A DNA stretch of 64,000 nucleotides from a virus (IMGVR_UViG_3300033144_002959:29709-93708); one strand, 5' to 3'; positions 43,252 to 63,991 are shown, counted from the stretch's first letter. Notes: generated from the sequence alone by a model not told the origin. Program-made: numbers and translations.

Positions 43252-43660
43252 CGACCTTCCTCCATGTTGCCTCAGCGGGATCACATTCCCACTTTCGGAC
43301 TACTCCTGAGTGTACCCGACTCGACGCTTGTAGAAAAGTTTTCACTGACTTAAATATCTCCGGCATTTTATAGTCCACTTTCGATCCATCGATCAGCATG
43401 ATATACGCCGGAACGTCCAGTCCGAAAAACACCAACATCAGATACAGGTCTCCGCGCACGTGCACGACCAGTGCAGATTGATTGCCTTTCTTTTTGTGCA
43501 TTGCTGCCACAATTTCCATCGGGCAACTCATTCGCATTGTCGGCACCATCGGTACCGACAGAGTGCCTTTACCTTTGACCGTACGCGCAGTCACACGTAA
43601 GTGCATTTTCAGCGCGTCCGCCATCCAGTACGAATGTTCTTTTGGTAACAGTTGATTCAT
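43229..43660 (-). CDS. Hypothetical protein
   Basis: ATGA-coupled to upstream ORF. Confidence 0.55.
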   Translation of the reverse strand: MNQLLPKEHSYWMADALKMHLRVTARTVKGKGTLSVPMVPTMRMSCPMEIVAAMHKKKGNQSALVVHVRGDLYLMLVFFGLDVPAYIMLIDGSKVDYKMPEIFKSVKTFLQASSRVHSGVVRKWECDPAEATWRKVVDPNSVG

Positions 43661-43950
43661 GTGATCGCCTTCCATTCGACTTTGTTTTTGTTTAGTTCAG
43701 TGGCACGAATCCGGCCCATCAAAACTCCGAGGTACGTCAGATCAAAATCAACCACCGCGAATTCTGTCCTGACCCCTTTACCCGTGTCCCCTTCCAGCCT
43801 AATGCCAGTAATCGCATTCGTTGCAGTCCAAACAATTTCCTCATTTTCGTCCAGACCGGGAAACGGATTACCGGTTGTTATCTGGTCGCCCTTTTCGAAT
43901 TTCCTAAGTGCAGTTGCATCCATGTCAAATACCTTACGTCCCTTCGCCAT
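43657..43950 (-). CDS. Hypothetical protein
   Basis: 97 aa, overlaps neighbours. Confidence 0.6.
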   Translation of the reverse strand: MAKGRKVFDMDATALRKFEKGDQITTGNPFPGLDENEEIVWTATNAITGIRLEGDTGKGVRTEFAVVDFDLTYLGVLMGRIRATELNKNKVEWKAIT

Positions 43951-44929
43951 TGATCACCCCAAGGTCAGGCATCGGAGTTTCAAATTCCAACCCTGTGCCC
44001 ATCAGTACCGCGCCCAGTGCTCGCTTCGCAATCAGCTCTTCAATGCCATTGAAGTGCACCGACGTGTACCCTTTTTGTATGTAGTCTTCATTGAATCCTG
44101 CCGCGACCAGCGGGTCTTTATGTTTGCCAACCGGCCCCTCGACTCGGATACTCAAATTCGAATTGCTCACCCATCGGGCAGCGAACTTTAGTTTCCCGGC
44201 AATGCCAATGCAGTGATACGTACTGGAATCACTCGTGGCTTTAACCGGCTGATACATCGTTGTCGCCTGCGACAGTTTCACCTTATCCATTTTCAGCGCA
44301 ACGTCTTTGTCCGTTGGAAATACTTCACTCACTTTCGGGCCGTGCACAATCTCATCTTTATCAGGGAACACGGTCACTTCATCGGACTGGTTGAACTGAG
44401 TGTCAACCAAATTTCCTAATTCAACCTGTCCCTTAATAAACGCAGTCCCCTCCATGCTCTCTTCGGCCTCAACGTCATCCAGCATTGCCGATGCCATGTG
44501 CTCTTTGAATACTTTGCCCTCGACAAATTCGCTTGAACTGATCGTGCCAATCTTGGGGCCGGTCTTCTCACCTTCCGCAGCCAACTGGTCAAGGTCTTTC
44601 CAGACTGCCGCTACTGACCCGGTTTTCTTCAGAGGCTTTTTCTTCAACTGTTTCAAGCAAATCGAAAGGGCACCGTTTATTTTCTTCGCCACTTCCTCTT
44701 GTGCAGCAACAGGCAAAATACCTTCCTTTGCCATTTTCAATATGCCGGATTTGATCGGCATATCTTTGACGATGCCATACTCGTGGTTACCGAACTCCAG
44801 CTTGGTGCCTGCGACATTAGCCTTACAGATAACGTCGTAATTTTTCAGTGACGATACCTGTTCAATAGACAACCCGAGACCGAACCATGCGTCCAGTTTC
44901 TCGGGGGTGTATTTGAAACTCAGTGCCAT
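43934..44929 (-). CDS. Hypothetical protein
   Basis: About 331 aa with own promoter and GACATGGAGGC RBS. Confidence 0.75.
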   Translation of the reverse strand: MALSFKYTPEKLDAWFGLGLSIEQVSSLKNYDVICKANVAGTKLEFGNHEYGIVKDMPIKSGILKMAKEGILPVAAQEEVAKKINGALSICLKQLKKKPLKKTGSVAAVWKDLDQLAAEGEKTGPKIGTISSSEFVEGKVFKEHMASAMLDDVEAEESMEGTAFIKGQVELGNLVDTQFNQSDEVTVFPDKDEIVHGPKVSEVFPTDKDVALKMDKVKLSQATTMYQPVKATSDSSTYHCIGIAGKLKFAARWVSNSNLSIRVEGPVGKHKDPLVAAGFNEDYIQKGYTSVHFNGIEELIAKRALGAVLMGTGLEFETPMPDLGVINGEGT

Positions 44930-44956
44930 CAATTGCCTCCATGTCTGTATATAATC

Positions 44957-44985
44957 ATTGTGCCTGATTGATGCACGTCTGTCAA
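44957..44985 (-). promoter_or_regulatory. Sigma70-like promoter
   Basis: TTGACA-gacgtgcatcaatcagg(17)-CACAAT. Confidence 0.7.
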
Positions 44986-44989
44986 ACTC

Positions 44990-45685
44990 TCACTTGACAT
45001 CAAGATCACCGAAAATACAGTGCTTCGCATTAACCGGATTGATCATTGCTTGCATCGCTTTGGTTGTTGTCCCAATCTTTTTTTTGCTGCCGAAAACCTT
45101 CGCGCCCTTGACTTCTTTACAGGCAAAATATTTCATTAAGAATTTGACCTGCGTCGTGGACTCGACCGCTTTCTTACAATAGTTTTTGCGTACATACGTG
45201 ATCGCATCAGGCTCATCAGTCATCACCGCGACCAATGCACTGAGCACAATCCCGGTTCTGCCGTGGCCTCCAATGCAACCAATGTGCACCTTCTGACCGT
45301 CACGAATCTGATCGGCCAACCAAGCAATCAACTCTATAAATTCATCGGAGTCTTTCGGCACCGACATATCTTTGATTTCATAATGAATAGCATGACCGTG
45401 CGCCCACGGAAACCGCTGCTTATGCTGCTTCATGCCGTAATCAAGACCAACGTAAATGTCAGCGTCATTGTGGATTGGGTATGAGCACGATCCGCCAAAC
45501 ACGAACCGGGTTCCACCTTCTGACAAATTCAATTCCAATGGTGGGTGACTTTCATAACAGCGTTTGAATTCGCCCCACTTGGTTTTTGATTTCGATTTCT
45601 GTGACTCCCACGTGGACGCAGCAGTCGAATCCCAATCGGGAGTCGAACTAATCGCCACAACTTTTCCTGATTTTTTAGTAGTCAC
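44990..45685 (-). CDS. Cys-based (PTP/DSP-like) phosphatase
   Basis: VHIGCIGGHGRTG (CX5R), IKDMSVP (WPD-loop equivalent), AVESTTQ. Confidence 0.88.
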   Translation of the reverse strand: MTTKKSGKVVAISSTPDWDSTAASTWESQKSKSKTKWGEFKRCYESHPPLELNLSEGGTRFVFGGSCSYPIHNDADIYVGLDYGMKQHKQRFPWAHGHAIHYEIKDMSVPKDSDEFIELIAWLADQIRDGQKVHIGCIGGHGRTGIVLSALVAVMTDEPDAITYVRKNYCKKAVESTTQVKFLMKYFACKEVKGAKVFGSKKKIGTTTKAMQAMINPVNAKHCIFGDLDVK

Positions 45686-46730
45686 GTGCCTTCACCGCCT
45701 TTTTAATTTTCACTCCGGGCATCACTTCGAAATACAACTTCTCGTGTGCCGCCTTTTTCGCCGCCGCTGCATCCTTCGCCGCCGCAACTTTCTCCAGCAC
45801 CGCTGCATTGGCAGCTTTGAATTTTGGATCGTTACCGAACTTTTGCATGTTCGCTGACTTATACTGATCGTATGTTTGAACCGCACCCAACGCTTCAACA
45901 ACGTCCCAGTCAACCCAACTGTCGTACTCTGTTTTTAGCAATGTCTCCATCGAGAACAGATCGCCCGAATGCGTATTTTGCACGTGTGTGCAAAACGGTG
46001 ACCCGGACTTAATGAGGTTTGGAATTTGCCCAGCTCTTTGGCAATCCAAAATCGTGTACAACTGGAATGCGTCATAGTGCGTGAACTGAAATCCTTTGTT
46101 AAAAATTGGCCCATTGTTATGCGCCAATGCGTAACCAATATCGAGCATCATTTCAACGCTGATTTTTCCGTTCACAGTATCGCGTATCGCTTCGGTGACA
46201 CTGCCCCACGGCTTGCCGCCATAACTCGATGACCAGCTCAACGTGTTAAATACGTCAACCAAATAATCCAGATACGGTCCCAACTTCAGATCACCACTGT
46301 AATTAAACAGAGCCTTCTGAGCACCGGACTTCACTTTTTTCGTAAAGTCCGCACACTGCGAACCATGTTTTTGGATCAACTGGTCTTCTTGCACATTCGT
46401 CAAATGCCGTGACTCACGAGTTGTCGTGATCAGAATGTACTGGAACAATCGCGACCCAGCGGAATTCAAAACTTCGTGGAATCGTTCAACCAATGGCAGC
46501 TTACTGCCCAATGGTTCATCGGGATCGTGCGCAGCTTCAATCTCACCCATCGCGTGCTGCAACAGATAAAATTCAAGCGCCTCGCTCTCAGGGCTTTTCT
46601 GCCCTGCCGAGTTAAGGTTCGCTTTCGCAGTCTTCCCGGCAACCGATAAAGGTACCTGCGACAAATCACGCGCCATCGTACCGGGGCGCTCACTCTTGTG
46701 GTATGCAATTGTGTCGTAATCGTGAATCAT
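45675..46730 (-). CDS. Hypothetical protein with RESRH / YGGKPW / HNNG motifs
   Basis: 351 aa from ATG 46730 with GACATGGAGGC RBS and own promoter; lies between two phosphatases. Confidence 0.75.
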   Translation of the reverse strand: MIHDYDTIAYHKSERPGTMARDLSQVPLSVAGKTAKANLNSAGQKSPESEALEFYLLQHAMGEIEAAHDPDEPLGSKLPLVERFHEVLNSAGSRLFQYILITTTRESRHLTNVQEDQLIQKHGSQCADFTKKVKSGAQKALFNYSGDLKLGPYLDYLVDVFNTLSWSSSYGGKPWGSVTEAIRDTVNGKISVEMMLDIGYALAHNNGPIFNKGFQFTHYDAFQLYTILDCQRAGQIPNLIKSGSPFCTHVQNTHSGDLFSMETLLKTEYDSWVDWDVVEALGAVQTYDQYKSANMQKFGNDPKFKAANAAVLEKVAAAKDAAAAKKAAHEKLYFEVMPGVKIKKAVKARDY

Positions 46731-46752
46731 CAAGCCTCCATGTCTTACCTTT

Positions 46753-46781
46753 AGTATGCCTGCGTGAACCGCGTTTGTCAA
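46753..46781 (-). promoter_or_regulatory. Sigma70-like promoter
   Basis: TTGACA-aacgcggttcacgcagg(17)-CATACT. Confidence 0.7.
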
Positions 46782-46783
46782 AT

Positions 46784-47338
46784 CTACTTATACGATCTGA
46801 CTATTTTCGCTAACCGTTTGACATCGAAATCTCGCACAAACTCTTCCTGTGCTTTTGTCTCGACAGCTTCCGGGCGATACATTGCACGGGCCTTACTAAC
46901 GTAATCGACCGTTCGAAAATCCCACCATCGCCGGGTCGATTCGTGCGCCACCTTAATCAGCAGTGCCACAAATAATCCTGTCCTGCCTCTGCCCCAACCG
47001 CAGCCCACAAACGGAATCAAACCGCCCTTCATCAGCACAATCGTGCTCAGCAAAGCGCTCTCAACCAGCTTCGTATTAGGGATGCCGAAATCTTTGATCG
47101 GACAATCGACCATGTACTTTGCTTTCATTTCCGCAGCCAACTTAATGCCGGGACTATCCTTCGGCTTCTCACTGTACGGCCCAGCCATAACCGGGGACAC
47201 ACCCCACGGAAATAGAATACCAAACGCTATTGTCTCAACCGCTGGGTGTCCAATTGATTGGACGCCTGCAAAATCGAACACGTCATCGTCTTCGATTTGG
47301 TATTCGATATCCACGTTATAGTTTTTCTTTTCTGACAC
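46784..47338 (-). CDS. Cys-based (PTP/DSP-like) phosphatase
   Basis: FVGCGWGRGRTG (CX5R), IKDFGIP, AVETKAQEEFV; GTG start at 47338 after CACGGAGG (ORF track 47437). Confidence 0.88.
   Translation of the reverse strand: MSEKKNYNVDIEYQIEDDDVFDFAGVQSIGHPAVETIAFGILFPWGVSPVMAGPYSEKPKDSPGIKLAAEMKAKYMVDCPIKDFGIPNTKLVESALLSTIVLMKGGLIPFVGCGWGRGRTGLFVALLIKVAHESTRRWWDFRTVDYVSKARAMYRPEAVETKAQEEFVRDFDVKRLAKIVRSYK
47248..47263. promoter_or_regulatory. 16-bp palindromic site, copy 5
   Basis: Exact GTCCAATTGATTGGAC inside the 5' part of the phosphatase gene. Confidence 0.75.
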
Positions 47339-47342
47339 TGCG

Positions 47343-47777
47343 CTACCTCCGTGCTTTGTGTCTGTTATTCGTATTTCCATTTTGCCTGCGTGACGCACGT
47401 TTGTCAACGCCGCTACAATCGGGGCATGGCCACTCACGCCTGTGTGAATTCTCGCACTCCGAAAGTTCGCAGTGCCCGTTGCAACTTACGCAAGCCTCAT
47501 ACACGACAAATTTCCGCGTATCGTCACAGCTCACACAATCCGGCTCATAAAAACTCAGGGACTCAAGCCTATTACGGTTCACCGTCAACAGCAGGTCGCC
47601 ATAGCGACGATTGCCCTCTGGGTGGGTGATGGGAGCGCTTAAATACACGGCCTCCCTGAGCCACGTCAGAGCGTCTGAGCCATCCTGCAAATCCATGTCT
47701 CGGACCCAGCCCAACAAACTCAACGGGATACTAATCCCCTGATTTTGCTGCTTTCTTTTTCCGATATACAACGCCAC
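47343..47777 (-). CDS. Hypothetical protein with CxxC zinc-finger repeats
   Basis: CVSC, CVSC.G, CPDCSG motifs. Confidence 0.65.
   Translation of the reverse strand: MALYIGKRKQQNQGISIPLSLLGWVRDMDLQDGSDALTWLREAVYLSAPITHPEGNRRYGDLLLTVNRNRLESLSFYEPDCVSCDDTRKFVVYEACVSCNGHCELSECENSHRREWPCPDCSGVDKRASRRQNGNTNNRHKARR
47379..47407 (-). promoter_or_regulatory. Sigma70-like promoter
   Basis: TTGACA-aacgtgcgtcacgcagg(17)-CAAAAT. Confidence 0.7.
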
Positions 47778-48045
47778 GATCTACTTTTATCCTCCGTGGT
47801 GCTTCGACAACCACCTTGACTCCATGCCGTTTAATATCTGCACCTGTTCCGGCACTCACCCTGACCTGCGGCAAAATTTCCGACGCACGTCGATCAGTAA
47901 CTTCATGCACCGTATGCAGGGCTGGCTGAAAAACTTTCAGATGGAAATTAAATTCGTGCCGAATATCGTGCAAAACCACGCGCACGTCGTCAACATAAAA
48001 ATCGTTGTACGGTTCATCGGGGTAAAGTTCCAATACCAATCCCAT
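47731..48045 (-). CDS. CsrA/RsmA-like RNA-binding protein (extended)
   Basis: GVKVVVEAPRRIKVDRGVVYRK resembles CsrA [22 protein letters not shown]; N-terminus MGLVLE resembles CsrA beta-1. Confidence 0.6.
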   Translation of the reverse strand: MGLVLELYPDEPYNDFYVDDVRVVLHDIRHEFNFHLKVFQPALHTVHEVTDRRASEILPQVRVSAGTGADIKRHGVKVVVEAPRRIKVDRGVVYRKKKAAKSGD

Positions 48046-48505
48046 CGTCTTCCTCCGTGTTCACGCTGATACTCAGCGCTGTTAATGCTCGCCGGGTTAC
48101 TCTCCATATGGAGCCACCCTTTGTACCGGGCCGAGCCTCTACCCGTTCGATCAAACCTTTGTGCATCAATACGATCAACTGACTACTCACGTCCGACGTA
48201 TTCTGGCCACTCACCCCGCACAAGTCCCGAGTCGTTACAGTCTTCGGGTACAACGATGCGACATGCCCTAAGCACTTTTTGAGTTTCGTACCCTGTTCAG
48301 GCATTCGAAACTCTTCCTTTTTCTGAGTGTGTATGCGGAAACCACCATCAGTAGTTTTCGCATAAACATAACGATGCAGTCCGCAAATGCAACGCTGAAT
48401 AATATCCATGTCCGTGATTTCGTACCAAGCATTGCCATGACATTTCGGGCACTCATCCCGTTCGTTCATCACTCGCGGTTGCTTTCGTACGATCCGTACA
48501 GCCAT
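48014..48505 (-). CDS. Zn-ribbon plus winged-helix DNA-binding protein
   Basis: CPKC...CICG, then VTTRDL...TSDVSSQLIVLMHKGLIERV...WRVT. Confidence 0.7.
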   Translation of the reverse strand: MAVRIVRKQPRVMNERDECPKCHGNAWYEITDMDIIQRCICGLHRYVYAKTTDGGFRIHTQKKEEFRMPEQGTKLKKCLGHVASLYPKTVTTRDLCGVSGQNTSDVSSQLIVLMHKGLIERVEARPGTKGGSIWRVTRRALTALSISVNTEEDDGIGIGTLPR

Positions 48506-48511
48506 ATACCC

Positions 48512-50650
48512 TCACTTGAACACGTCAAATACCAAGCGATTTTTGGATACAGCCTTTGGCTTTACCCGCACCGGAGTACCGGCTTTCTCCATCATTTCGA
48601 ACAGCTTAGTCGCGACGTGCTCGCCTCCGATTTCTTTGGCGAACCCTTCATCAATCTCGACTATACCATCGCTTTCAAGTAATTCCTCAATTGTTTCAAC
48701 ACGTGACACCACCTTCCAACCCGCATCACGTAATTTGTTGACCTGATCTGGCGTCGAAAAACTAGACGGAACTATGATCACTTTTTCTTTCAGTTTCTGC
48801 CAATTCAAATTCATCAACGCCTTTATTCGATCATGCGTTTCCGCTTCATTGACCGAATTGTTAGGTGGCCCAACCAGATTCCAAAGCATCTTGTCGGCAT
48901 CCAACCTGTTCTCTCCGGGCAACGTCAAATCAATGTAGCACTCAACAATATCGGTGTCGGCTTCCGCCTTCATCAGAAATTGTGTGAACTGTCCAAGGTC
49001 TGATCCCCCGGTCGCAATGTATCGATTGTCCAGCACCTTGCTATCGTGCGACGTCTTGACCATAACCTTATCGGTCGCATCAATCGCCCAACCTAAAACA
49101 GTTTTCGCGTAATCGTCAACGTCGCCTTTCGTAAGCACCAACGGTTGTAACCAGACTTTACCGCTGGCACCGTCAATCGTAATCTTTGGCCAACCAGATA
49201 TCTCCGGCAAGTCTATGCAACCAACAACACAATGTTTTTCAAGTGATCGCCCGACAACCGCTGCATGACTGGTCGCTCCCCCGGTTCGTGTCAGGATGCC
49301 GACACTCGCTGCCATGCCCCCAAAATCTTCTGGCGTCGTTTCATCCGTGACCAGTATCACCGGCTTATCCGCACCGAGCATCTTAGCTTCCTCAGCACTG
49401 GTAACAACGCTACCAACAACCAGACCACCACCAGCGGCGATACCCTGATAATCCGGCTCAGGAACTTCGCCCTTGATCCGAACTTTTTTCATTGCCATGT
49501 ACTGCTTGGCGCTAACTCGACTGACCGCTTCCTCTTTGGAAATCAATCCGCCCTTCGCCATGTCATGTGCAATTCTGAATGCTGCCTTGCCGCTTCGCTT
49601 GCCAACTCTGCACTGGAGCATCCAAAGTTTACCGTCTTCAACAGTGAACTCGATATCCATCATTTCTTTGTAATGCTTCTCAAGCGTCATGGCGATATCA
49701 TCCAGTTCTTTCGCAATGTCCGCATTCCAAACAGCCATGCCCGTTAAATCGAGCGGAGTAGTAGTGCCAGCAACAACGTCTTCGCCCTGAGCGTTCACAA
49801 GGAACTCACCCATCATTGCGTTTTTGCCTGTTGCTGGGTCGCGAGTAAACGCAACACCGGAACATGACTCATCGTTCATGTTGCCATACACCATCATTTG
49901 AATGTTGACCGCAGTACCCAAGTCATTATCCATGTCGTGCAACTCCCGGTATTCTTTCGCTCGCTTGCTGTCCCACGAGTTGAACACCGCAGTAATCGAT
50001 CCGATCAACTGATCACGCAAGGTGTCGGGAAAGTCGGTGCCAAATCGTTTCGCGTAATGCGTCTCAAACTTAATAACCGCTTTGGTCAAATGCTTGACAC
50101 TCTTCACCGTCTCCGCATCGGAACTCGGTGACGATTTCAAATTATATTTGTAGCCCTTGATGAAATCCCACAACTGACCGAACCCATGCAAGCCCTTAAC
50201 CGTTGTGGCGTACTGAGAAATCTGACGACGTCTGCAATCAAGCGCTGAGCATTCGCCCAGTCGCGATTTCCAGTCATCAAGATTGTCGGACGTCAGCCCG
50301 ATATTCAACAGGGTATCCATCATACCCGGCATCGAAAACTTACCGCCAGATCGCACAGAAAACAGCGGCTCATAGCCAACCGTCTTCGTGATTTTTTCCA
50401 GCGCCGGAAGCACATACTTATCAACTAACATTTCGACATACTTATTTTTTTCAAAGTTGCCGGTCATGTCGTTTCGATATGAATTACATGCCAGTGTCGG
50501 AATCGTGATCCCGTAAGGTACAGGCATACCCAGCTTGGCCATTTCAGCAAGGTTCGCGCCCTTGCCACCAAGCAGGTCTGACATTGAAGCATCGCCTTCG
50601 GTGAAACCATTCACCGAACCGAATTGATAAATTACTTGACCTTCTGCCAT
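48512..50650 (-). CDS. Pyruvate phosphate dikinase-like protein lacking the pyruvate-binding barrel
   Basis: GGKGANLAEM, SVRSG..SMPGMMDT, NAQGEDVVAG, DIEFT, GGATSHAAVV present; 712 aa; canonical C-terminal motifs not seen. Confidence 0.9.
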   Translation of the reverse strand: MAEGQVIYQFGSVNGFTEGDASMSDLLGGKGANLAEMAKLGMPVPYGITIPTLACNSYRNDMTGNFEKNKYVEMLVDKYVLPALEKITKTVGYEPLFSVRSGGKFSMPGMMDTLLNIGLTSDNLDDWKSRLGECSALDCRRRQISQYATTVKGLHGFGQLWDFIKGYKYNLKSSPSSDAETVKSVKHLTKAVIKFETHYAKRFGTDFPDTLRDQLIGSITAVFNSWDSKRAKEYRELHDMDNDLGTAVNIQMMVYGNMNDESCSGVAFTRDPATGKNAMMGEFLVNAQGEDVVAGTTTPLDLTGMAVWNADIAKELDDIAMTLEKHYKEMMDIEFTVEDGKLWMLQCRVGKRSGKAAFRIAHDMAKGGLISKEEAVSRVSAKQYMAMKKVRIKGEVPEPDYQGIAAGGGLVVGSVVTSAEEAKMLGADKPVILVTDETTPEDFGGMAASVGILTRTGGATSHAAVVGRSLEKHCVVGCIDLPEISGWPKITIDGASGKVWLQPLVLTKGDVDDYAKTVLGWAIDATDKVMVKTSHDSKVLDNRYIATGGSDLGQFTQFLMKAEADTDIVECYIDLTLPGENRLDADKMLWNLVGPPNNSVNEAETHDRIKALMNLNWQKLKEKVIIVPSSFSTPDQVNKLRDAGWKVVSRVETIEELLESDGIVEIDEGFAKEIGGEHVATKLFEMMEKAGTPVRVKPKAVSKNRLVFDVFK

Positions 50651-50677
50651 TTATGCCTCCCTGTCTTTGGTACCCTC

Positions 50678-50706
50678 ATTGTCTCAAACGTGGGTACGTT
50701 TGTCAA
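50678..50706 (-). promoter_or_regulatory. Sigma70-like promoter of the dikinase gene
   Basis: TTGACA-aacgtacccacgtttga(17)-GACAAT. Confidence 0.7.
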
Positions 50707-50894
50707 ATTCTATTGATCGTCGCACCCAGCCCCTCGGCTACCTCGACCAGTGTAGAAATTTCCAACTCACTGAAACCATCAATCTCAACATGCACCTGAC
50801 TGTCTTCAGTCCACCAAATGTATTTGTCGAGTACAGCTTCCTCAATGAACAGCGCCTCATTCGTGTTACTCGGAAAGAAGATATTCAGTTGCAT
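50703..50894 (-). CDS. Hypothetical protein
   Basis: 63 aa from ATG 50894. Confidence 0.45.
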   Translation of the reverse strand: MQLNIFFPSNTNEALFIEEAVLDKYIWWTEDSQVHVEIDGFSELEISTLVEVAEGLGATINRI

Positions 50895-51417
50895 ACCCAG
50901 CGTACCCCGCAAAGTTATCCAACGTCACGATGTCCAGTTTGAAATGCGTGTCCGTCTTATTCAAAACCTCGCGCCATTTTGTTGTGCGAAGTATATTCAA
51001 TCGTTTCGTCGGTGCCGGAATTTCATACGGCGTCGTGCCTTGGATACCGTAGCGCAAAACATCGTACGCCTCAACCGATCCTTCGCCCTGCTCAAGCGCA
51101 ATGAACACCGTCCGATAGTGCGGAAATACTCGGATGATTGACGTCCAGTCTCCGGCCCTCTCGCTGAAACCCACAGCTGCCTGATATGTCGAGTGCAAGT
51201 AGTTGAATGCGTCCCGCAATTTTACTTCGTGCCGACTACTCACGTTCATATGTTTTCGAATCGCTTCCTGAGTGGTCGTATCGATCACCATTGCGTTCAC
51301 AACTTCACGGATTTTCTCGCGGTTAAATTGCACCAGCTGATCGTGATAATAAATCAGCCCGTTCCACGTGCTCGCGGAATTCGGTGCTTTCAATGCTTGG
51401 GTCAAATCGTATTTCAA
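50866..51417 (-). CDS. Hypothetical protein
   Basis: 183 aa, TTG start with CACGGAGG RBS. Confidence 0.65.
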   Translation of the reverse strand: MKYDLTQALKAPNSASTWNGLIYYHDQLVQFNREKIREVVNAMVIDTTTQEAIRKHMNVSSRHEVKLRDAFNYLHSTYQAAVGFSERAGDWTSIIRVFPHYRTVFIALEQGEGSVEAYDVLRYGIQGTTPYEIPAPTKRLNILRTTKWREVLNKTDTHFKLDIVTLDNFAGYAGYATEYLLSE

Positions 51418-51434
51418 TCTAGCCTCCGTGACTA

Positions 51435-56357: not shown

Positions 56358-56393
56358 CCACTACCGGGCGGAAATTTATCGTCATCAAAATCG

Positions 56394-56726: not shown

Positions 56727-56804
56727 TGAATACCGCCTCGTAAAAAATCATGGCCACTGCCCCGACTGACAACAGCCCCAACAAAATTGCGACCACGATC
56801 CAGA

Positions 56805-57841: not shown

Positions 57842-57847
57842 GTCGTC

Positions 57848-58345
57848 TTATTTCCCCAATTCGCTAATAGCTCGCTTCATCTTGTCGAGAATCATACGCC
57901 CAACAGTGCCAGCTTTCGCGATTGGTTCGACGCGCTCAAATGGGCGTCTGTGCATACTACGATGTTTAGCAACCTTCTCAGCCGCCGACATGATGTGCTC
58001 TGCGGATGCGTGTCTGGCACCGTCTCTGGCACCAACAGCGATCACTGCATCCCACGGGAACGGCGTCTTGTCATGCCACACCCACGGCGTTTGGAAATCA
58101 TCGTCTTTAACCCCGTGGAAACTGAAGGCTTTTTTGAAACCCAGTTCACGCATGGTGTCACGATATTCAAAAACCGTTTCACCCGACAAATCGAAAACGG
58201 AATATACAACTCGACCATCTTCGGTTGATTCCACAAAAAGCATTGAACCGTCTTCATGCTCGGCCCAACAACCCATCGCCAGCTCATCGTTATTTTTTGA
58301 TTTGCCCGACTTGTCTTTAAGTCCCGGTACGTCTCGTGTTGACAC
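57848..58345 (-). CDS. Hypothetical protein
   Basis: GTG start with CACGGAGG RBS and own promoter. Confidence 0.7.
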   Translation of the reverse strand: MSTRDVPGLKDKSGKSKNNDELAMGCWAEHEDGSMLFVESTEDGRVVYSVFDLSGETVFEYRDTMRELGFKKAFSFHGVKDDDFQTPWVWHDKTPFPWDAVIAVGARDGARHASAEHIMSAAEKVAKHRSMHRRPFERVEPIAKAGTVGRMILDKMKRAISELGK

Positions 58346-58375
58346 AGCTTCCTCCGTGATTTTATTTGGTCAGAC

Positions 58376-58404
58376 ACCATAGCCTGACTGTTCTAATTTG
58401 TCAA
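58376..58404 (-). promoter_or_regulatory. Sigma70-like promoter
   Basis: TTGACA-aattagaacagtcaggc(17)-TATGGT. Confidence 0.65.
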
Positions 58405-58616
58405 ATGCCACGGCGAAACGTACCCATACTATCCAATTGATTGGACGGATGCGGTTCCCCGAATCCCTTACACGCTCCACACCTGTGCCGCTCTTTGTAT
58501 CGGCCTGCACGAATATTGAAGACGTCTTCGGCCCCACGTTGTTTCGGGTTCGCCATGCCTGAGCCTTTGCAATATTGACAAACGACTACGTCACCTGTTG
58601 TCGTGTACGTTGTCAT
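58401..58616 (-). CDS. DnaJ-type zinc-finger microprotein
   Basis: CQYCKGSG and CGACKGFG. Confidence 0.6.
   Translation of the reverse strand: MTTYTTTGDVVVCQYCKGSGMANPKQRGAEDVFNIRAGRYKERHRCGACKGFGEPHPSNQLDSMGTFRRGI
58431..58446. promoter_or_regulatory. 16-bp palindromic site, copy 7 (1 mismatch)
   Basis: ATCCAATTGATTGGAC, 26 bp upstream of a TTGACA -35 box. Confidence 0.75.
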
Positions 58617-59634
58617 CGTGCATCGTCATTTCGAAATCTTTTTTCACCACGCCCAGCTTACGGTCACCACGCCAATGTGGCTTCACCCAAATGACTTTAC
58701 CTGACTGTAAATGCCGTGGGAATCCTCGTACTTGGTGCAATCGTTTTCTCGGTTGCTCGGCGTGATACCCAACCTGTTGCGGAGCTGGCAAATCAATCTC
58801 CAACTCACAAACAAAATGTTCGAACATCGGGCGCTCCCATCTTTTCTTTTTATGCAGCGGCTTAGTTCGCATCCCGACCTTGTGCGCTATACCGTGCTGA
58901 CGCCGCCTGAGCATCCCTGCAAGTCCGAAACTCGCCAGCCAGTTCACTATGCACACCCTGACCAATTCGATCACGTTAGCGCCCTTCTGCGTGACCTCGA
59001 CATTCGATGCCATCGCATTCAAAAATGTGGTCTCGGATAACAGCGCCCCTTTGTTGAAATGAATCTCAACCGGGCACATGCTCAGCCGTTCGTTCGCCCT
59101 GATTTTTCCGTTTTCCATTTCGACGCCGACCGGCCTGTAAAAACACATCGATACCGATATGAATTTCTCGCCTTCCTCGACGCCAAGTTCCGGGTACGCC
59201 TTCAACTTATCGGGTGACCTCGGGTCATCGTCTTCTGCCGTGGTCTCCATCAGGCTGATCACAACGTCATCATCGCCTAACCCAGTCAGCACCAACGTGC
59301 ACCACTCGTATGGCAAATGCAGCGGTCGCGTATTCAACAGATAGTTGATTTCATCGTCATACTGAATTTGCATTTCACGAATGGTGTCTATGTCCAATGA
59401 GAACTTCACCGAGCTGCGTACCACTGTTGCCAGCCACGCATCCACCACCGCCATTTCTCGGATCGTTGTATTCGCATCCCCGGTCTGTTTGAACAACGTG
59501 TTGTTGAACAAATAGTGCGGTGGCTTCGGCATGTACTTTTCAGTCGTGATCAATTTCTCGACACGCTCCAAGTGCATCAGCCACTCGTAAAATGCCGGGG
59601 GTAAATACCCCGGCTTAGCTCGCTTCCGCTTCAA
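58591..59634 (-). CDS. Hypothetical phage protein with HxVRG...WVKPHWRG motif
   Basis: 347 aa; basic C-terminal RLHQVRGFPR...WVKPHWRGD motif. Confidence 0.7.
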   Translation of the reverse strand: MKRKRAKPGYLPPAFYEWLMHLERVEKLITTEKYMPKPPHYLFNNTLFKQTGDANTTIREMAVVDAWLATVVRSSVKFSLDIDTIREMQIQYDDEINYLLNTRPLHLPYEWCTLVLTGLGDDDVVISLMETTAEDDDPRSPDKLKAYPELGVEEGEKFISVSMCFYRPVGVEMENGKIRANERLSMCPVEIHFNKGALLSETTFLNAMASNVEVTQKGANVIELVRVCIVNWLASFGLAGMLRRRQHGIAHKVGMRTKPLHKKKRWERPMFEHFVCELEIDLPAPQQVGYHAEQPRKRLHQVRGFPRHLQSGKVIWVKPHWRGDRKLGVVKKDFEMTMHDDNVHDNR

Positions 59635-60007
59635 CGATTGCCCCCTGTTTCAGAAATCCTGCGATCAACGTAGTCGATTGAGTATCGCTGTACCCGAAGT
59701 TTCTCAACTCCTGCACCCAGCCTCGACGTGTCGCCTCGGAAGCATTACCGAGCAACAACTTCTCAATAGCCTTGCCTCGCATACTGCCCACCTGAAACCT
59801 TGGTGCTACCTCGGGGACCAATACCAACATCGCATTCTGGTCACGCCGTGGTGGCGCGAGTTTCCTCTTTTTCTTGGCCTTCGGTTTAGCGAGCGGTGAA
59901 TCACTCTCACCGTATTCCATAATCGCTGCACCCGATGCGAGTGCGAATTGGACTATCTCAGTCCCGACCTTTATGTCCTGCGCGAGCAGGGTGATTTTCG
60001 TAGCCAT
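59615..60007 (-). CDS. Hypothetical protein
   Basis: 130 aa, CAGGAGG RBS. Confidence 0.65.
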   Translation of the reverse strand: MATKITLLAQDIKVGTEIVQFALASGAAIMEYGESDSPLAKPKAKKKRKLAPPRRDQNAMLVLVPEVAPRFQVGSMRGKAIEKLLLGNASEATRRGWVQELRNFGYSDTQSTTLIAGFLKQGAIVEAEAS

Positions 60008-60022
60008 AATTACCTCCTGATT

Positions 60023-60439
60023 TCATGGCATTAAAATTCGTACTCTCCCTCCGATACGCTTCGCGTACCTGACTGATGCCCACGTGCCCGACCGCTGAAT
60101 TTCTTTCGGCTGAGCTGGGGCAGCAATTAAAAAATCTGACTCTTTTACAATCATGTGATTGCGATCCAAATATGGCAACGGCGAACGTACCTGCTTTACC
60201 GGCAACTCCAACAGCATGTCCGCCATCAATCGTTTGTCTGTCGGCGGATGCGCGATTATTCGATGTATGCCTAACAACCATTTCGCGAAGTCATGAAACT
60301 CACGGTCTGCACCAACACAACAACCGTGGTGCACTTCCTCAATGCCCTCATGCTCGTGAAATGACAGCATCGTCTTAATAAGCCCAACCTTCTGCCGATC
60401 AGACAAGCCATCGCGAGTACCGGTAAAGCCTAAGATCAT
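60023..60439 (-). CDS. SLOG-superfamily (YspA/DprA-like) protein
   Basis: ILGFTGTR, HHGCCVGAD, LDRNHMIV, SGTWASVRYA. Confidence 0.82.
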   Translation of the reverse strand: MILGFTGTRDGLSDRQKVGLIKTMLSFHEHEGIEEVHHGCCVGADREFHDFAKWLLGIHRIIAHPPTDKRLMADMLLELPVKQVRSPLPYLDRNHMIVKESDFLIAAPAQPKEIQRSGTWASVRYAKRIGGRVRILMP

Positions 60440-60675
60440 TCGCCTTTCCTCACTTCGAATAACCAGTTGAGCCTATCAGACCAGAACATCAAACGCTTCT
60501 GTCGTTCCAGTACCGCTCGCGGATTTTCCCGGCGTCTCTTGCGCCAGTAATACCGTGACGAACTGCATCGGCTACATAGCCCACGCATCTGATTTCCTTT
60601 TGGATACTCACCGTCCAGTGGAACAATAAGCCGCCCACACTTAGGGGTATCGCAAAGATTTTTTCTTCGTGCCAT
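60436..60675 (-). CDS. Small basic zinc-finger protein
   Basis: CDTPKC...GLCSRC; CAAGGAGG RBS. Confidence 0.6.
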   Translation of the reverse strand: MARRKNLCDTPKCGRLIVPLDGEYPKGNQMRGLCSRCSSSRYYWRKRRRENPRAVLERQKRLMFWSDRLNWLFEVRKGE

Positions 60676-60707
60676 CGTCTAGCCTCCTTGTCGAAACTGG
60701 TCGTGAC

Positions 60708-60736
60708 ACCTTAATGTGTTTGGTCTGGTTTGTCAA
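60708..60736 (-). promoter_or_regulatory. Sigma70-like promoter
   Basis: TTGACA-aaccagaccaaacacat(17)-TAAGGT. Confidence 0.6.
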
Positions 60737-61145
60737 ATGGAGGATCGATCATTTCCAGAGCGATCTTGTACTTCGCAGCCAGCTTCGGTGGCGGAGCATT
60801 CCCAAGGTTCACCATCAGATCGGCGCTCTTCACGAACACGGCCAAATCGTTTTTCCTGACCCTGTCTATATATTCGAAATACGTCTCGTCTTCCCTTTTG
60901 GTAATCGCGTCAACTGCCTCAACGATCACATCGTCAAAGAACAATCTCAGGCCATCAAGGGTGACTTCCGTATCCTCAACCACATCATGCAAATAGGCCA
61001 CAGTCACTTGTGCGTCCGTTGCCCCGGTAGCCTTAACCAGCGTAGCAACCTCTTCGACATGCCTCTCAAAATAAGGCTTGCCCTTATAAAGTTTCCCGGT
61101 CCCATCATGCGCCAGCTTGGCAATAAATGCCGCTTTCAATTTCAT
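60711..61145 (-). CDS. Small alarmone hydrolase-like HD-domain protein (Mesh1/SAH-like)
   Basis: LAH, KPYFERH, YLHDVVEDT, VDAITK, VKSAD..N. Confidence 0.85.
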   Translation of the reverse strand: MKLKAAFIAKLAHDGTGKLYKGKPYFERHVEEVATLVKATGATDAQVTVAYLHDVVEDTEVTLDGLRLFFDDVIVEAVDAITKREDETYFEYIDRVRKNDLAVFVKSADLMVNLGNAPPPKLAAKYKIALEMIDPPFDKPDQTH

Positions 61146-61147
61146 TG

Positions 61148-61330
61148 TTACCTCTCTTCGTTGCCGAACGTCTCCATCCAGTACAACACAACTTCCTTGG
61201 CTTCCGCCTTGTCAACGTCGAACTCGCTCTCGACGTACGCGCCAGCACCAAACATATTCGTGGCACCGGACTCCCTCAGTCCATCCAGATAAACCAATCG
61301 TTCATCGGTCACACTCTCTGGTCTCGTCAT
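61148..61330 (-). CDS. Small hypothetical protein (LRESGxTNMF family)
   Basis: YLDGLRESGATNMFGA; ATG at 61330 with GACATGGAGGC RBS. Confidence 0.7.
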   Translation of the reverse strand: MTRPESVTDERLVYLDGLRESGATNMFGAGAYVESEFDVDKAEAKEVVLYWMETFGNEER

Positions 61331-61353
61331 TTTTCTGCCTCCATGTCTTCTGA

Positions 61354-61593
61354 TTAAACGTACACCGGCATCTTCGCAACGGTGCACACCACAACAGGCT
61401 TCAGCTTGTACAGGAATTCTTTCCCGCACTCTTCGCAGTCCACCTTGCCTTCACCCTTCAGTCCCGCACCATCTTCGTTTTTGTACGGGGACTCATTCGC
61501 CATTGCCGAAAACGGGGCATACGATATTTCCATTCCGTCTCCAGTGTGGTCGCAGTACGGGCATGTCATCGTAACTTCATTTTTCCCAGTCAT
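61354..61593 (-). CDS. Zn-ribbon protein
   Basis: CPYC...CEECGKEF; ATG at 61593 with GACATGGAGGC RBS. Confidence 0.65.
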   Translation of the reverse strand: MTGKNEVTMTCPYCDHTGDGMEISYAPFSAMANESPYKNEDGAGLKGEGKVDCEECGKEFLYKLKPVVVCTVAKMPVYV

Positions 61594-61607
61594 ACCTGCC
61601 TCCATGT

Positions 61608-62438
61608 CTAACTCAAAACTGCAACTCGGTTAACCATTGTTTCGTTAACCCCCTTGTAATCTCCGTGCTTTTTGACAGTGGCCTTGAACCGGATTTCGTC
61701 ACCGGCTTTCGGCTCCCACTTGTATCCAGAATAAAACGTGGCAAGTCTGTGCCCGCCTGAATCAATCATCTTGACCAACGTGCTGCCACCGTAATCGCTA
61801 TCGATCAACATGGTGGAAACAATCGTGGCTTCGAACTCATAACGCTTTTTCAATTCCCCGAAGTGATCATCAACTGAAACCAGCACCGCTCCGTGGTTTT
61901 CCAAGAAAGTATTCAACGCCAGATTTCGTAATTCGTCGGACGGAAAGGTGAAGTTCTCACGAGTTGCCATCCACTCCAGATAGCCCCGGTCAAACTTGTT
62001 AACCTCGACCCATGTCTTGCCAGCATACTTGCCGCCACCAAAAGTACCCAGCGGGTACCGGGTCAAATTGATCATCGTCCAGTAATCGTTATTCTCCGTG
62101 CGTTCGTTGGACTCGATTGCCAGCGCGTATGTGCGTTCCGCCATTTCCTCAGCGCTCGCTCGCGTCAGCTTTCTCATTTCCTCTTCCATGCCTTCGCGCT
62201 CGGTGATCATCGGAATGCCCATCGCCTTGCCAGCTTCGTTGGCTTTTTCCCACGCCAGATCAGCTGTGTTCGCGAGGTTCCTGTGATGAAAAGACCGAAC
62301 GGTCTTGTCCATGTATCCGCCTGCACCGCCAACCCAGCGTTCGTGCAGGTAGGTTTCACGCAGGGTCCAGAACCCAAACGTGGCACCGATGCCTATGAAT
62401 AGCACCGGAGAAAAAGAATTTGCAGAGCCGTTTTTCAT
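61608..62438 (-). CDS. Hypothetical protein with C-terminal OB-like domain
   Basis: GGKYAGK...YLEW motif; SDYG...GDEIRFKATVKKH.DYKGV.ET.VNR C-terminus. Confidence 0.7.
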   Translation of the reverse strand: MKNGSANSFSPVLFIGIGATFGFWTLRETYLHERWVGGAGGYMDKTVRSFHHRNLANTADLAWEKANEAGKAMGIPMITEREGMEEEMRKLTRASAEEMAERTYALAIESNERTENNDYWTMINLTRYPLGTFGGGKYAGKTWVEVNKFDRGYLEWMATRENFTFPSDELRNLALNTFLENHGAVLVSVDDHFGELKKRYEFEATIVSTMLIDSDYGGSTLVKMIDSGGHRLATFYSGYKWEPKAGDEIRFKATVKKHGDYKGVNETMVNRVAVLS

Positions 62439-62465
62439 ACTGCCTCCATGTCAATCTACACCCCA

Positions 62466-62494
62466 ATTATCGCACAATGGGTACGTATTGTCCA
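62466..62494 (-). promoter_or_regulatory. Sigma70-like promoter
   Basis: TGGACA-atacgtacccattgtgc(17)-GATAAT; the -35 box is itself a palindrome half-site. Confidence 0.65.
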
Positions 62495-62501
62495 ATGATT
62501 T

Positions 62502-62517
62502 GTCCAATCAATTGGAC
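62502..62517. promoter_or_regulatory. 16-bp palindromic site, copy 8
   Basis: Exact GTCCAATCAATTGGAC with flanking T/A, 7 bp upstream of the -35 box. Confidence 0.8.
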
Positions 62518-62625
62518 AGTAAAATCGACCCTCGCTCCCCGCCGTACCGCTCTAGGTTTCGGGCTATGCTTCTCAGGTCGATCCATCCGGGCAAGTAGTC
62601 CATTACGGGGGTCGCCCGGTTCGTG

Positions 62626-62823
62626 CTATGTCTCTTCGTAACCGTCAAACCAGTCACCACGCTCGTTGGTAATCCGCACTCGGTCTGCTCTGGTGCAGGT
62701 ATTGGAGCTGGTCTCTGGGTCACTACAATGGGCCTGCGCCTCTTCCAGCGTTAGCCCGGACTTGATCGTCCGGTTGAAATGCCGCGACTCTTCGCGAGCG
62801 TACATTCTTATGACTTTGTACAT
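62626..62823 (-). CDS. Small hypothetical protein
   Basis: GLTLEEAQAHC.DPETSS...WFDGY; coupled to upstream gene. Confidence 0.65.
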   Translation of the reverse strand: MYKVIRMYAREESRHFNRTIKSGLTLEEAQAHCSDPETSSNTCTRADRVRITNERGDWFDGYEET

Positions 62824-63203
62824 TACGCTGCCGCCTTGGTTTCGGCCATCACTTCCTTCAGGCTTCCGCCGCTGTAATACAAATCCCGCTCGATGCCTAA
62901 CCCAAGCGGCCCCTTGTATGCCTCAAGTTCTGAGAGCAAAACGTAACCCAGCTCAGCACACACCGGATCGCCAAGATTGGCGAAACCAAACATATGCCAG
63001 TCAGCAGGATTCTCGGTTTCGTAATCCGGCTCACCATTCACTGTTGCCAGCGGGGTGGCCCGTGTCACGTACCAAGTCGCAGCACCAACCGGATTGAAAT
63101 ACTTGACTGCTATCTCATCGGTCGTGTTGCCATCCTCCGACTCAAGAAACGCCAGATCAGCTACCTTCAGCTTTTTGGCAATTGCCTTAGTCATTAGCTT
63201 CAT
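62823..63203 (-). CDS. DUF2958-like protein
   Basis: VKYFNPVGAATWYVT, MFGFANLG, ELGYVLLSEL, IERDLYY. Confidence 0.8.
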   Translation of the reverse strand: MKLMTKAIAKKLKVADLAFLESEDGNTTDEIAVKYFNPVGAATWYVTRATPLATVNGEPDYETENPADWHMFGFANLGDPVCAELGYVLLSELEAYKGPLGLGIERDLYYSGGSLKEVMAETKAAA

Positions 63204-63211
63204 GCTTCCTC

Positions 63212-63481
63212 CTACAGATAATTTTCGTCGCCATCAAATTTGATGTGGACAGCCCCGGCGTTGGGCATCCCATAATCATCGACCGGCTCAAAGCCTTCAT
63301 AATCTCCGTACAGCCAGCCGTGATAATAGGCATTGTCATCGTCATCGTAGAGCGTGAAGCCCTTCGGATTGGCGCTGACATTTTCGTCCAGATCACGTGG
63401 ACCCTCGACACCAACAGCAGAATATTTGTTGCCACCGTCAAGGTAGTCTTTATCGATTTTCCATCGATAGGTAGCGGTCAT
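63212..63481 (-). CDS. Hypothetical protein
   Basis: FTLYDDDDNAYYHG...PVDDYGMPNAGA; coupled. Confidence 0.65.
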   Translation of the reverse strand: MTATYRWKIDKDYLDGGNKYSAVGVEGPRDLDENVSANPKGFTLYDDDDNAYYHGWLYGDYEGFEPVDDYGMPNAGAVHIKFDGDENYL

Positions 63482-63678
63482 TACGCTGCCACCGGGAACG
63501 GCCCAGCCGCCTCATCCAGATCAACTACCGCAGTCAACTCCAGCACGTTGTCTCGTGCATAACGTGCCGCAACTGCGTTAGCTCGCGCACTGCCGAATGC
63601 TTCAAACTCAACCACTGGGCGCGGCGTCTCTGGCGCAACAGGCGTAACGTATTCGTAAAACGCTGTGTATTTGCTCAT
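63481..63678 (-). CDS. Hypothetical protein
   Basis: 65 aa, GGAGG RBS. Confidence 0.55.
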   Translation of the reverse strand: MSKYTAFYEYVTPVAPETPRPVVEFEAFGSARANAVAARYARDNVLELTAVVDLDEAAGPFPVAA

Positions 63679-63689
63679 GATTACCTCCC

Positions 63690-63812
63690 CTAAAAAACGA
63701 ACGTGTTTGTGACAGCCGATGCGATTGCTAAAACCGCAACCGTAAGCGGGAGCGCGGCCATCGTTAGCGCTATCACCGCCAGCTTAAATCTCAGTAGAAA
63801 TGAAATACTCAT
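63690..63812 (-). CDS. Hydrophobic microprotein (40 aa)
   Basis: MSISFLLRFKLAVIALTMAALPLTVAVLAIASAVTNTFVF; GACATGGAGGC RBS. Confidence 0.55.
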   Translation of the reverse strand: MSISFLLRFKLAVIALTMAALPLTVAVLAIASAVTNTFVF

Positions 63813-63826
63813 ACTTGCCTCCATGT

Positions 63827-63991
63827 CTAACTAACGAAAAATGCAATAACCGGTATCACGGCTATCGTCGCCGCAACAAATCCAACAATCATCGCGACCT
63901 CAAAATTGGACACCGCGAACTCAACGCCCTCAGCCGCAGCAGCAGCATTAACAGCGTCATTCGCCAACCAGTATTCATAAGGATTATTCAT
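63827..63991 (-). CDS. Membrane microprotein (54 aa)
   Basis: MNNPYEYW...VAMIVGFVAATIAVIPVIAFFVS; GGAGGC RBS at window edge. Confidence 0.55.
   Translation of the reverse strand: MNNPYEYWLANDAVNAAAAAEGVEFAVSNFEVAMIVGFVAATIAVIPVIAFFVS

Follow-up and report, generated by a model that had tools for sequence, protein, structure and literature searches.

A CsrA-like protein and ribosome-binding-site boxes in a phage family: a plausible but unproven phage-owned translational control circuit

The closest described systems

Proteins of the CsrA/RsmA/RsmE family recognize the RNA consensus (A/U)CANGGANG(U/A), and their high-affinity sites display A-N-GGA in a hexaloop above a closing stem, a loop that CsrA-type proteins can also induce upon binding. 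In bacteriophage T4, RegA acts as a translational repressor of early messenger RNAs (mRNAs) and autoregulates, and RegB is an endonuclease that cuts GGAG in early Shine-Dalgarno (SD) sequences. Here we describe a sequence box located at ribosome-binding sites (RBSs), together with a gene encoding a 104-amino-acid (aa) CsrA-like protein (47731-48045, minus strand), in a 64,000-nucleotide (nt) stretch of viral DNA, hereafter the window, which comprises bases 29709-93708 of the 93,708-base-pair (bp) viral record IMGVR_UViG_3300033144_002959, the ends of which are direct terminal repeats. A preliminary description of the window proposed that the phage protein, or host CsrA, shuts off early genes together and autoregulates. 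The analysis points to a phage-owned translational control circuit that is plausible but unproven.

The 104-aa protein shares with CsrA, RsmA and RsmE, known from sites such as those of glgC and hcnA, the β4-β5-helix region and key residues, including the equivalents of R44, A-P, V40, V42 and I47. As in the sites of these regulators, the box motif CANGGAGG agrees with CANGGANG and lies over the SD sequence, the regulator's own RBS is boxed, and the A-N-GGA-N hexaloop of the relatives is closed by a C:G pair, as in hcnA. The differences concern both the protein and its setting: (i) CsrA comprises about 61 aa against 104 here, with some 40 extra β-rich residues, R6/R7 are not kept and the Pfam score falls below the cutoff; (ii) unlike CsrA, the protein is phage-encoded, its proposed targets are phage mRNAs with one site each, and no sponge RNA was detected within the non-coding stretch of the genome; and (iii) relatives exist in a host family whose genomes yielded no CsrA gene. 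The motif CANGGAGG is a subset of the CsrA/RsmE consensus. It is also a subset of RUACARGGAUGU, the consensus obtained for CsrA by SELEX, as cited in PMC3879156.

Phage homologues of RsmA/CsrA, such as those of the Serratia phage Parlo and the Burkholderia phage DC1, likewise place CsrA-family genes in tailed phages (Campa et al. 2021, PMC8450108). In that paper's account of them, these homologues are of canonical length, were found by PF02599, correlate with CsrA-bearing hosts and are proposed to act against host regulons or CRISPR-Cas, and the same account reports no phage-genome-wide target motif. The start-associated sequence (SAS) of cluster K mycobacteriophages comprises 13-bp SD-containing boxes, 3-7 nt before starts and in one orientation, which likewise occur only at non-structural genes, are missing from the host genome and cannot be accounted for by pairing with 16S (Pope et al. 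2011, PMC3203893). The SAS GGGATAGGAGCCC displays complementary outer triplets around an A-rich GGA loop; it belongs to another phage group with an Actinobacteria host, with no known binder and no CsrA-like gene reported (PMC3203893). Unlike SAS, the present box has a candidate binder encoded beside the target genes, the presence of which co-varies with the motif. The ACA translational enhancer (Yang, Figueroa-Bossi and Bossi 2014, PMC3879156) resembles the nine GACATGGAGG copies of the window lineage in placing ACA directly 5' of the SD sequence; nevertheless, the enhancer works at variable positions, whereas the CA described here is fixed and the motifs of relatives contain no ACA. The T4 RegA/RegB system is likewise a phage post-transcriptional shut-off aimed at many early RBSs, as proposed here, with unrelated proteins and recognition sequences, which sets it apart. 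Both phage CsrA homologues and start-associated sequences have been described before; the link between them, not found in the papers searched, appears to be new.

A box fixed relative to the SD sequence of non-structural genes

The 11-mer GACATGGAGGC occurs six times in the window, always on the minus (coding) strand, against 0.06 expected, and none of 100 shuffles reaches six; these are exactly the six identical copies that had been reported. The motif CANGGAGG is found 18 times against 6.8 expected, a count again reached by none of 100 shuffles, with 17 copies on the minus strand and 16 within 43259-63827, the range singled out earlier. Thirteen copies stand 4-7 nt 5' of a start codon that opens an open reading frame (ORF) of at least 40 aa and a 14th lies at the window's right edge, while those at 47651 and 44449 are gene-internal.

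The distribution was assessed over the whole 93.7-kb genome, with gene starts and gene set from our own calls, which place nearly all genes on the minus strand. Of 102 non-structural genes, 23 have CA.GGAGG at the RBS, against none of 44 virion/terminase genes (Fisher p = 1.3e-4); the structural-gene RBSs inspected for the preliminary description likewise lack the CA-N prefix. Among GGAGG-type RBSs only, the prefix is carried by 23 of 32 non-structural against none of three virion sites (p = 0.03); virion genes display mostly weaker GGAG/GAGG sites, so that the contrast is one of strong SD plus CA prefix. The suggested test of early against late RBSs returned an enrichment of non-structural over virion genes. 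Early genes are not the only ones marked, since the box is also found at scattered genes of the left-arm replication region, where it is missing from the core helicase, primase and recombinase genes. In the 35 GGAGG-type RBSs, C occupies -3 in 25, A occupies -2 in 24, a pyrimidine -1 in 23 and A -4 in 15, and the consensus is R-W-C-A-Y-GGAGG-(C/A)-A, in a fixed position relative to GGAGG. The combination of A at -2 with a Watson-Crick-compatible -3:+2 pair characterizes 30% of RBS-like GGAG sites and 7% of other GGAG sites (p = 8e-7). Like a start-associated sequence, the box is longer than the SD sequence, keeps a fixed distance to the start, runs in one orientation and is confined to non-structural genes.

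The individual sites, all on the minus strand, fall into a few sequence variants. Copies of CATGGAGG inside GACATGGAGGC are located at 63818-63825 (5 nt before ATG 63812 of a 40-aa ORF) and at the RBSs of a 276-aa gene (62443-62450, gene 61608-62438, promoter-like site 62494-62466 upstream), a 79-aa gene (61599-61606, gene 61354-61593), a 60-aa gene (61338-61345, gene 61148-61330), the 351-aa phrog_20946 gene (46735-46742, gene 45675-46730, promoter-like site 46781-46753) and a 331-aa gene (44936-44943, gene 43934-44929, promoter-like site 44985-44957). The variant CAAGGAGG serves a 79-aa gene (60683-60690, gene 60436-60675) and CAGGGAGG the dikinase-like gene (50656-50663, gene 48512-50650, promoter-like site 50706-50678), whereas CACGGAGG is found at the RBSs of a 165-aa gene with a GTG start (58351-58358, gene 57848-58345, promoter-like site 58404-58376), a 183-aa gene with a TTG start (51423-51430, gene 50866-51417, promoter-like site 51470-51442), the CsrA-like gene itself (48052-48059) and a tyrosine-phosphatase-like gene with a GTG start (47346-47353, gene 46784-47338, promoter-like site 47407-47379). 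At the window's right edge, GGAGG (63996-64000) stands 4 nt before ATG 63991 of a 54-aa ORF; its GAGACAT prefix lies past the window and can be read in the copy within the terminal repeat (genome positions 93708 and 114). Most of the eight further genes said to carry variant boxes do so at their RBSs, except that the CACGGAGG copy at 47791-47798 is coding sequence, encoding A-P-R-R of the CsrA-like protein with the nearest GTG 13 nt away. The box had also been assigned to the polymerase, dikinase and CsrA-like genes, which holds for the last two and for the family-A DNA polymerase only with a TTG start: the CATGGAGG copy at 43259-43266 precedes TTG 43251 by 7 nt, and this start is uncertain, with GTG 43284 as an alternative. 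This phage shares a boxed RBS at the CsrA-like gene with three close relatives.

Seven near-consensus sigma-70-like promoters with a 17-nt spacer, at the minus-strand positions given above, each lie just 5' of a motif-bearing RBS and imply very short leaders; six comprise TTGACA and one (62494) TGGACA, often extended to ATTTGACAAAC, and ATTTGACAAA, present ten times, is the genome's commonest 10-mer. This arrangement could suggest that the box marks transcription starts, and A at -2 could suggest extended 16S pairing, the complement of the canonical 16S anti-SD tail being TAAGGAGGTGATC. Such origins, or chance and shared descent without function, are nevertheless very improbable. Against the canonical tail only A at -2 pairs, while C at -3, Y at -1 and the (C/A)A after GGAGG do not, so that the objection from 16S 3'-end pairing raised in the preliminary description does not apply, although the host's own tail may differ. 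The -10 element stands 10 to 25 nt from CA, with no constant spacing, and further, intercistronic copies have no promoter. The counts exceed all 100 shuffles, the box is kept at orthologous genes of relatives whose CsrA-like proteins are only 73-79% identical, and the flanks covary intramolecularly in relatives, as set out below. An upstream-ORF role for the ATG in CATGG was also rejected, the frames being inconsistent and the CAC variants having no ATG.

Positions -5 and +3 of the phage's own sites are complementary in 26 cases against 14.7 in shuffles (p = 4e-4; G:C 13, T:A 6, A:T 5). This pairing, the only complementarity that stands out in the window phage, would close an A-Y-GGA loop and fit a scheme G-N-C/A-Y-GGA/G-G-C, the middle pair being weak (A.G here, U.G in the GTCAC relatives).

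The CsrA-like protein

The 104-aa protein matches the Pfam CsrA profile PF02599 with 17.3 bits (E = 0.0046), below the 27-bit gathering threshold, the match pairing residues 70-97 with profile positions 24-51. Its close relatives number 22, at 68-93% identity, and a profile of these retrieves at least 210 clusters (50% identity) of proteins of about 100 aa; 74 of 92 family members scanned match PF02599 at E <= 0.01, the best at 1.7e-9. In turn, the 92-member profile finds in the PDB, at E <= 0.05, only CsrA, RsmE, RsmF and RsmN chains (best 2.4e-4). Residues I86, V88, R90, V93 and Y94 align with CsrA V40, V42, R44, I47 and Y48, so that RNA-binding region 2, comprising the counterparts of V40, V42, R44 and I47, is conserved, and A82, P83 and R90 are at least 90% conserved in the 92-member family. 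A language-model look-up led to a viral cluster with PF02599 in 68% of its members, at a look-up score that makes it a lead only.

Canonical CsrA proteins comprise about 60-75 aa with five strands and a C-terminal helix, and form an interdigitated homodimer. The AlphaFold2 monomer model (predicted local distance difference test score 87.6) comprises nine strands and a C-terminal helix. An exhaustive structural search aligned CsrA chains with residues 42-101 at Z 3.3-3.9 (1vpz_A, Z 3.9) and RsmN with residues 2-95 at Z 3.8, below top rows occupied by unrelated β-sandwich viral fusion proteins at Z 5-8. An internal duplication, making the protein a single-chain pseudo-dimer, is not claimed: the idea is based only on the strand count and the positions of the CsrA-chain alignments, and hhalign of the N-terminal against the C-terminal half gives a probability of 1.5%. 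The gene described earlier as CsrA-like is thus a genuine but distant homologue, with a sub-threshold Pfam match and a family profile that finds only CsrA-type PDB chains; judged by its sequence, the protein is a distant, enlarged CsrA relative with an intact second RNA-binding region, and not a canonical family member.

At 47725-47738, across the stop codon of the CsrA-like gene, lies a perfect inverted repeat, GGGAT-TAGT-ATCCC, which could form a small terminator or attenuator between the CsrA-like gene and the Zn-ribbon-like gene that follows it.

Lineage-specific boxes and hairpins in related phages

Wherever a phage has a syntenic CsrA-like gene with A-P and a basic residue aligned with R44 retained, it also has its own over-represented RBS motif. 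The window lineage carries GACATGGAGG nine times. The three IMG/VR relatives L001, L002 and L003, whose CsrA-like proteins show the 73-79% identity mentioned above, share the box (A/T)CA(T/C)GGAGG(C/T), in the form GTCACGGAGGC in L003, and in all three the RBS of the CsrA-like gene carries CATGGAGG. In the Rhodobacter phage RcZahn, CCAAGGAGGG (13 copies) and GCAAGGAGGC (eight copies) are the two commonest 10-mers; the RBS box is CCACGGAGGG in the Rhizobium phage RHph_TM16 (TM16), CAATGGAGTG in the Stenotrophomonas phage DLP_3, where its ten copies make it the commonest 10-mer, and GTCAGGAGAC, with four copies each, in the Vibrio phages KarBoss and PG28.

These distinct motifs share a pattern of complementarity. 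In RcZahn, TM16 and DLP_3, Watson-Crick complementarity at -3:+2 and -4:+3 around GGAG lies well above the shuffle level, as does that at -5:+4 in RcZahn and TM16; in RcZahn, -3:+2 reaches 41 against 24.8 and -4:+3 reaches 41 against 22.0, neither value being attained in 5000 shuffles. The closing pairs comprise C:G (27), G:C (7) and T:A (5), with A:T dominating in DLP_3, and slid controls are flat. In these three phages the SD GGA is thus placed in an A-N-GGA-G hexaloop on a covarying stem of 2-4 bp.

Each lineage carries its own version of the box at the dikinase, phosphatase and phrog_20946 orthologues, at the dikinase in L003, RcZahn, TM16 and DLP_3. Since the genes are orthologous and the boxes differ, a co-evolving trans-acting factor fits better than the near-invariant ribosome. 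That the protein and each lineage's own RBS motif go together in this phage family provides new support for a link between them.

Negative controls, host genomes and a cis-acting alternative

Phages lacking the protein, or keeping only a remnant of it, lack the box. The faecal phage fragment MT835511 has the dikinase, with no CsrA-like gene and no box; RcTiptonus, a 94-kb phage of the same Rhodobacter capsulatus strain as RcZahn, has no CsrA-like gene in a profile search at E <= 10 and no box, and its -3:+2 complementarity is at shuffle level (9 against 8.8). The Vibrio phage J26 displays no over-represented SD-containing 10-mer and no flank complementarity. Its ORF99 (L004:26575-27057), published as 'sRNA-binding carbon storage regulator CsrA' (PMC12038007), gives no Pfam CsrA match at E <= 0.1, is without A-P and the R44 equivalent, and reaches an hhalign probability of 48%; on this sequence evidence it is a degenerate member of the CsrA-like family.

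The RcZahn motif was also compared with bacterial genomes of a Rhodobacteraceae-type family, reached via a Cypionkella genome and taken here, by assumption, to be the family of R. capsulatus, which was itself not identified among the 101 genomes. The 13 copies of CCAAGGAGGG in the 0.1-Mb RcZahn genome, all on the coding strand, compare with 2-12 copies in four genomes of 3-5 Mb, the same as for a reversed-pattern control; the comparison with a host family covers RcZahn's motif. PF02599 is present in none of the 101 genomes in a search that did detect CsrA in E. coli, B. subtilis and T. maritima. If the family assumption holds, the phage's CsrA-like protein would therefore be the sole CsrA-family protein in RcZahn infections, and the earlier suggestion that host CsrA couples infection to carbon status is weakened, because the same arrangement occurs in RcZahn.

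These comparisons bear on a cis-acting alternative, in which a strong SD sequence held in a small loop or behind a CA/ACA enhancer raises translation or stability of non-structural mRNAs, the design having spread and become uniform in each lineage by recombination, and the CsrA-like protein acting on host mRNAs without any tie to the motif. Motif genes do carry the genome's strongest SDs, ACA just 5' of the SD enhances translation in Salmonella (PMC3879156) and nine copies here read GACATGG, the cluster K SAS offers a precedent of conserved RBS boxes with no known binder (PMC3203893), and phage CsrA homologues, in the account given in PMC8450108, are proposed to target host pathways. On the other hand, the ACA enhancer is flexible in position, whereas CA is fixed here at -3/-2 and A at -4 occurs in only 15 of 35 sites; the GTCAC, CCAAG, CCACG and CCAATG of relatives contain no ACA; a stem of only 2-4 bp would be too weak by itself; and no cis role is apparent for the invariant A at loop position -2. 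Furthermore, RcTiptonus and the host-family genomes make no use of the motif, which is thus not a general preference of the host ribosome. We regard the cis-acting design as unlikely, though still a serious contender.

Proposed mechanism and points against it

The earlier reading of a translational regulon is partly supported: the motif exists, holds a fixed position and marks non-structural genes only, the gene has CsrA homology and the consensus matches, while the 104-aa protein as binder, repression and the timing of an early/middle-to-late switch are inferred. In the reading we favour, which we rate close to but short of an even chance, the box would be an RNA operator bound by the phage's own 104-aa protein. 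The box (R)(W)CA(Y)GGAGG(C/A)A would overlay, as such an operator, the RBSs of about two dozen non-structural genes. Host polymerase would express the dikinase operon, including the CsrA-like gene, from the sigma-70-type promoter at 50706-50678, and the accumulating protein would bind A-N-GGA, block access of the 30S subunit and lower translation of the marked genes, by analogy with CsrA/RsmE. The CsrA-like gene, itself boxed, would be damped too, while unboxed virion genes, with weaker GGAG/GAGG sites, would escape and continue to be translated. Alternatively, binding may activate translation or stabilise the mRNA. Candidate RNA targets would be GACAUGGAGGC for the 104-aa protein and ACCAAGGAGGGU for RcZahn gp7.

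More broadly, and more tentatively, the same data might reflect a self-contained, phage-owned CsrA-type regulon in siphophages of 80-100 kb that infect alpha- and gammaproteobacteria, in which a divergent family of ~100-aa proteins co-evolves with lineage-specific hairpin operators at dozens of the phage's RBSs and works without host CsrA; such proteins would also be the first candidate binders of SAS.

Several observations weigh against the favoured reading. RNA-binding region 1 is not conserved: L3 and L5 are kept, and R6/R7 give way to L7/Y8, two residues that do not vary among close family members. The protein exceeds CsrA by about 40 residues, and a Foldseek search of the PDB with the monomer model found nothing at E <= 0.001 and no CsrA-like fold. 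RNAfold on 24 sites of the window phage gives no common or thermodynamically stable hairpin, and the hexaloop stem there stops at C(-3):G(+2). The box on the CsrA-like gene itself is limited to the window lineage. Copies of a repeated box may share descent, which would inflate the shuffle tests, and the lineages behind the co-occurrence, some six positive and three negative, lack phylogenetic independence. Finally, the retention of a degenerate homologue in J26-type phages hints at another role for the protein, and the phage CsrA homologues discussed in PMC8450108 are proposed there to act on host targets.

Should the 104-aa protein control the boxed genes, the circuit would represent, after T4 RegA/RegB, a second general solution for post-transcriptional early/middle shut-off in lytic phages, built on a borrowed bacterial global regulator and independent of the host Csr system. 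RBS-embedded repeats such as SAS, without known binder since 2011, would thereby gain a mechanism open to testing. Cultured pairs exist (RcZahn with Rhodobacter capsulatus and DLP3 with Stenotrophomonas), the RcZahn pair being clean, with no interference from host CsrA expected, and a compact RNA-binding protein with a short, tunable SD operator would be a useful orthogonal translational switch.

The dikinase module and other candidate binders

The CsrA-like gene belongs to a conserved module with the order dikinase/(small gene)/CsrA-like/(Zn-ribbon)/phosphatase/.../polymerase/portal, common to the Vibrio phages J26, KarBoss and PG28, Stenotrophomonas DLP_3, Rhodobacter RcZahn and Rhizobium RHph_TM16. 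In the window, all on the minus strand, it comprises (i) a pyruvate-phosphate-dikinase-like gene, first in the module (48512-50650; Pfam PPDK_N 1.2e-48, PEP-utilizers 1.9e-19); (ii) a 163-aa gene, possibly encoding a winged-helix protein (48014-48505; weak Pfam B-block_TFIIIC match, E = 8.9e-4), between the dikinase and CsrA-like genes; and (iii) 3' of the CsrA-like gene, a Cys-rich Zn-ribbon-like gene with CxxC pairs, a weak Anti-TRAP match (E = 0.07) and an uncertain start (47343-47696). DLP_3 has a gene at the position of the 163-aa gene, and its DLP3_138 occupies that of the Zn-ribbon-like gene; J26, PG28 and KarBoss have no 163-aa gene between the dikinase and CsrA-like genes.

The 163-aa and Zn-ribbon-like proteins are alternative candidate binders of the box. 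We consider it somewhat less likely still than the cis-acting design that the box is a genuine site for a trans-acting factor other than the 104-aa protein, namely one of these two proteins, host CsrA/RsmA in gammaproteobacterial hosts, or a RegB-like endoribonuclease cutting early SD sequences. The motif does match the consensus of host CsrA, both small genes hold the same positions in DLP_3, and T4 RegB and RegA are precedents for phage control at early RBSs; yet host CsrA was not found in the presumed RcZahn host family (0/101), the motif is present in PG28 and KarBoss despite the missing 163-aa gene, and an A-N-GGA loop is specifically a CsrA-type signature.

Two dual-specificity/tyrosine-phosphatase-like genes (44990-45685 and 46784-47338) flank the 351-aa phrog_20946 gene 3' of the dikinase-like gene, and this phosphatase/phrog_20946/phosphatase arrangement is kept from Vibrio to Rhodobacter phages. 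At the RBS of the phrog_20946 orthologue, KarBoss displays GUC-AGGA-GAC (L088:16701) and PG28 GAC-AGGA-GUC (L093:21724), a compensatory swap of the middle stem pair.

Genome setting

The virion block occupies window positions 1-39,600 and encodes the portal, a MuF-like protein, the capsid protein, the major tail protein and the tape measure, whereas 40,900-64,000 contains small genes without assigned function together with the dikinase-like, CsrA-like, two tyrosine-phosphatase-like and family-A DNA polymerase genes. The 29.7 kb beyond the window comprise replication genes (DnaB-like helicase, primase, helicase, UvsX-like recombinase and exonuclease), RtcB, a non-coding stretch with one transfer RNA (tRNA) and the large terminase. 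Most motif-bearing genes received no assigned function from PHROGs, megablast of 9 kb against the phage collection returned no matches, and two profile scans of viral contigs found no relatives.

The non-coding stretch (genome 19650-23420, L091) extends over about 3.8 kb without a credible ORF. A CsrB/RsmZ-type sponge RNA was not found there and is rejected as a candidate: GGA and CA.GGA per kb are below the genome average across 19.65-23.42 kb, and the sole Rfam match is the tRNA. The RtcB-type RNA ligase gene (phrog_1075, E = 1.8e-133; L090:16707-17810) lies near this tRNA/non-coding RNA region, which suggests repair of tRNA or other RNA cut by host defences.

A 10-bp palindrome, CAATCAATTG, occurs nine times against 0.25 expected, at window positions 7399, 10734, 11131, 28491, 39639, 47251, 52480, 58434 and 62505. 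Akin palindromes are the commonest 10-mers in relatives (TGCAATCAATT, nine copies in DLP_3; CAATCGATTG, 38 copies in RcTiptonus; TTAATTGCAA in the Vibrio phages), and this type of palindrome is probably a DNA operator common to the phage family.

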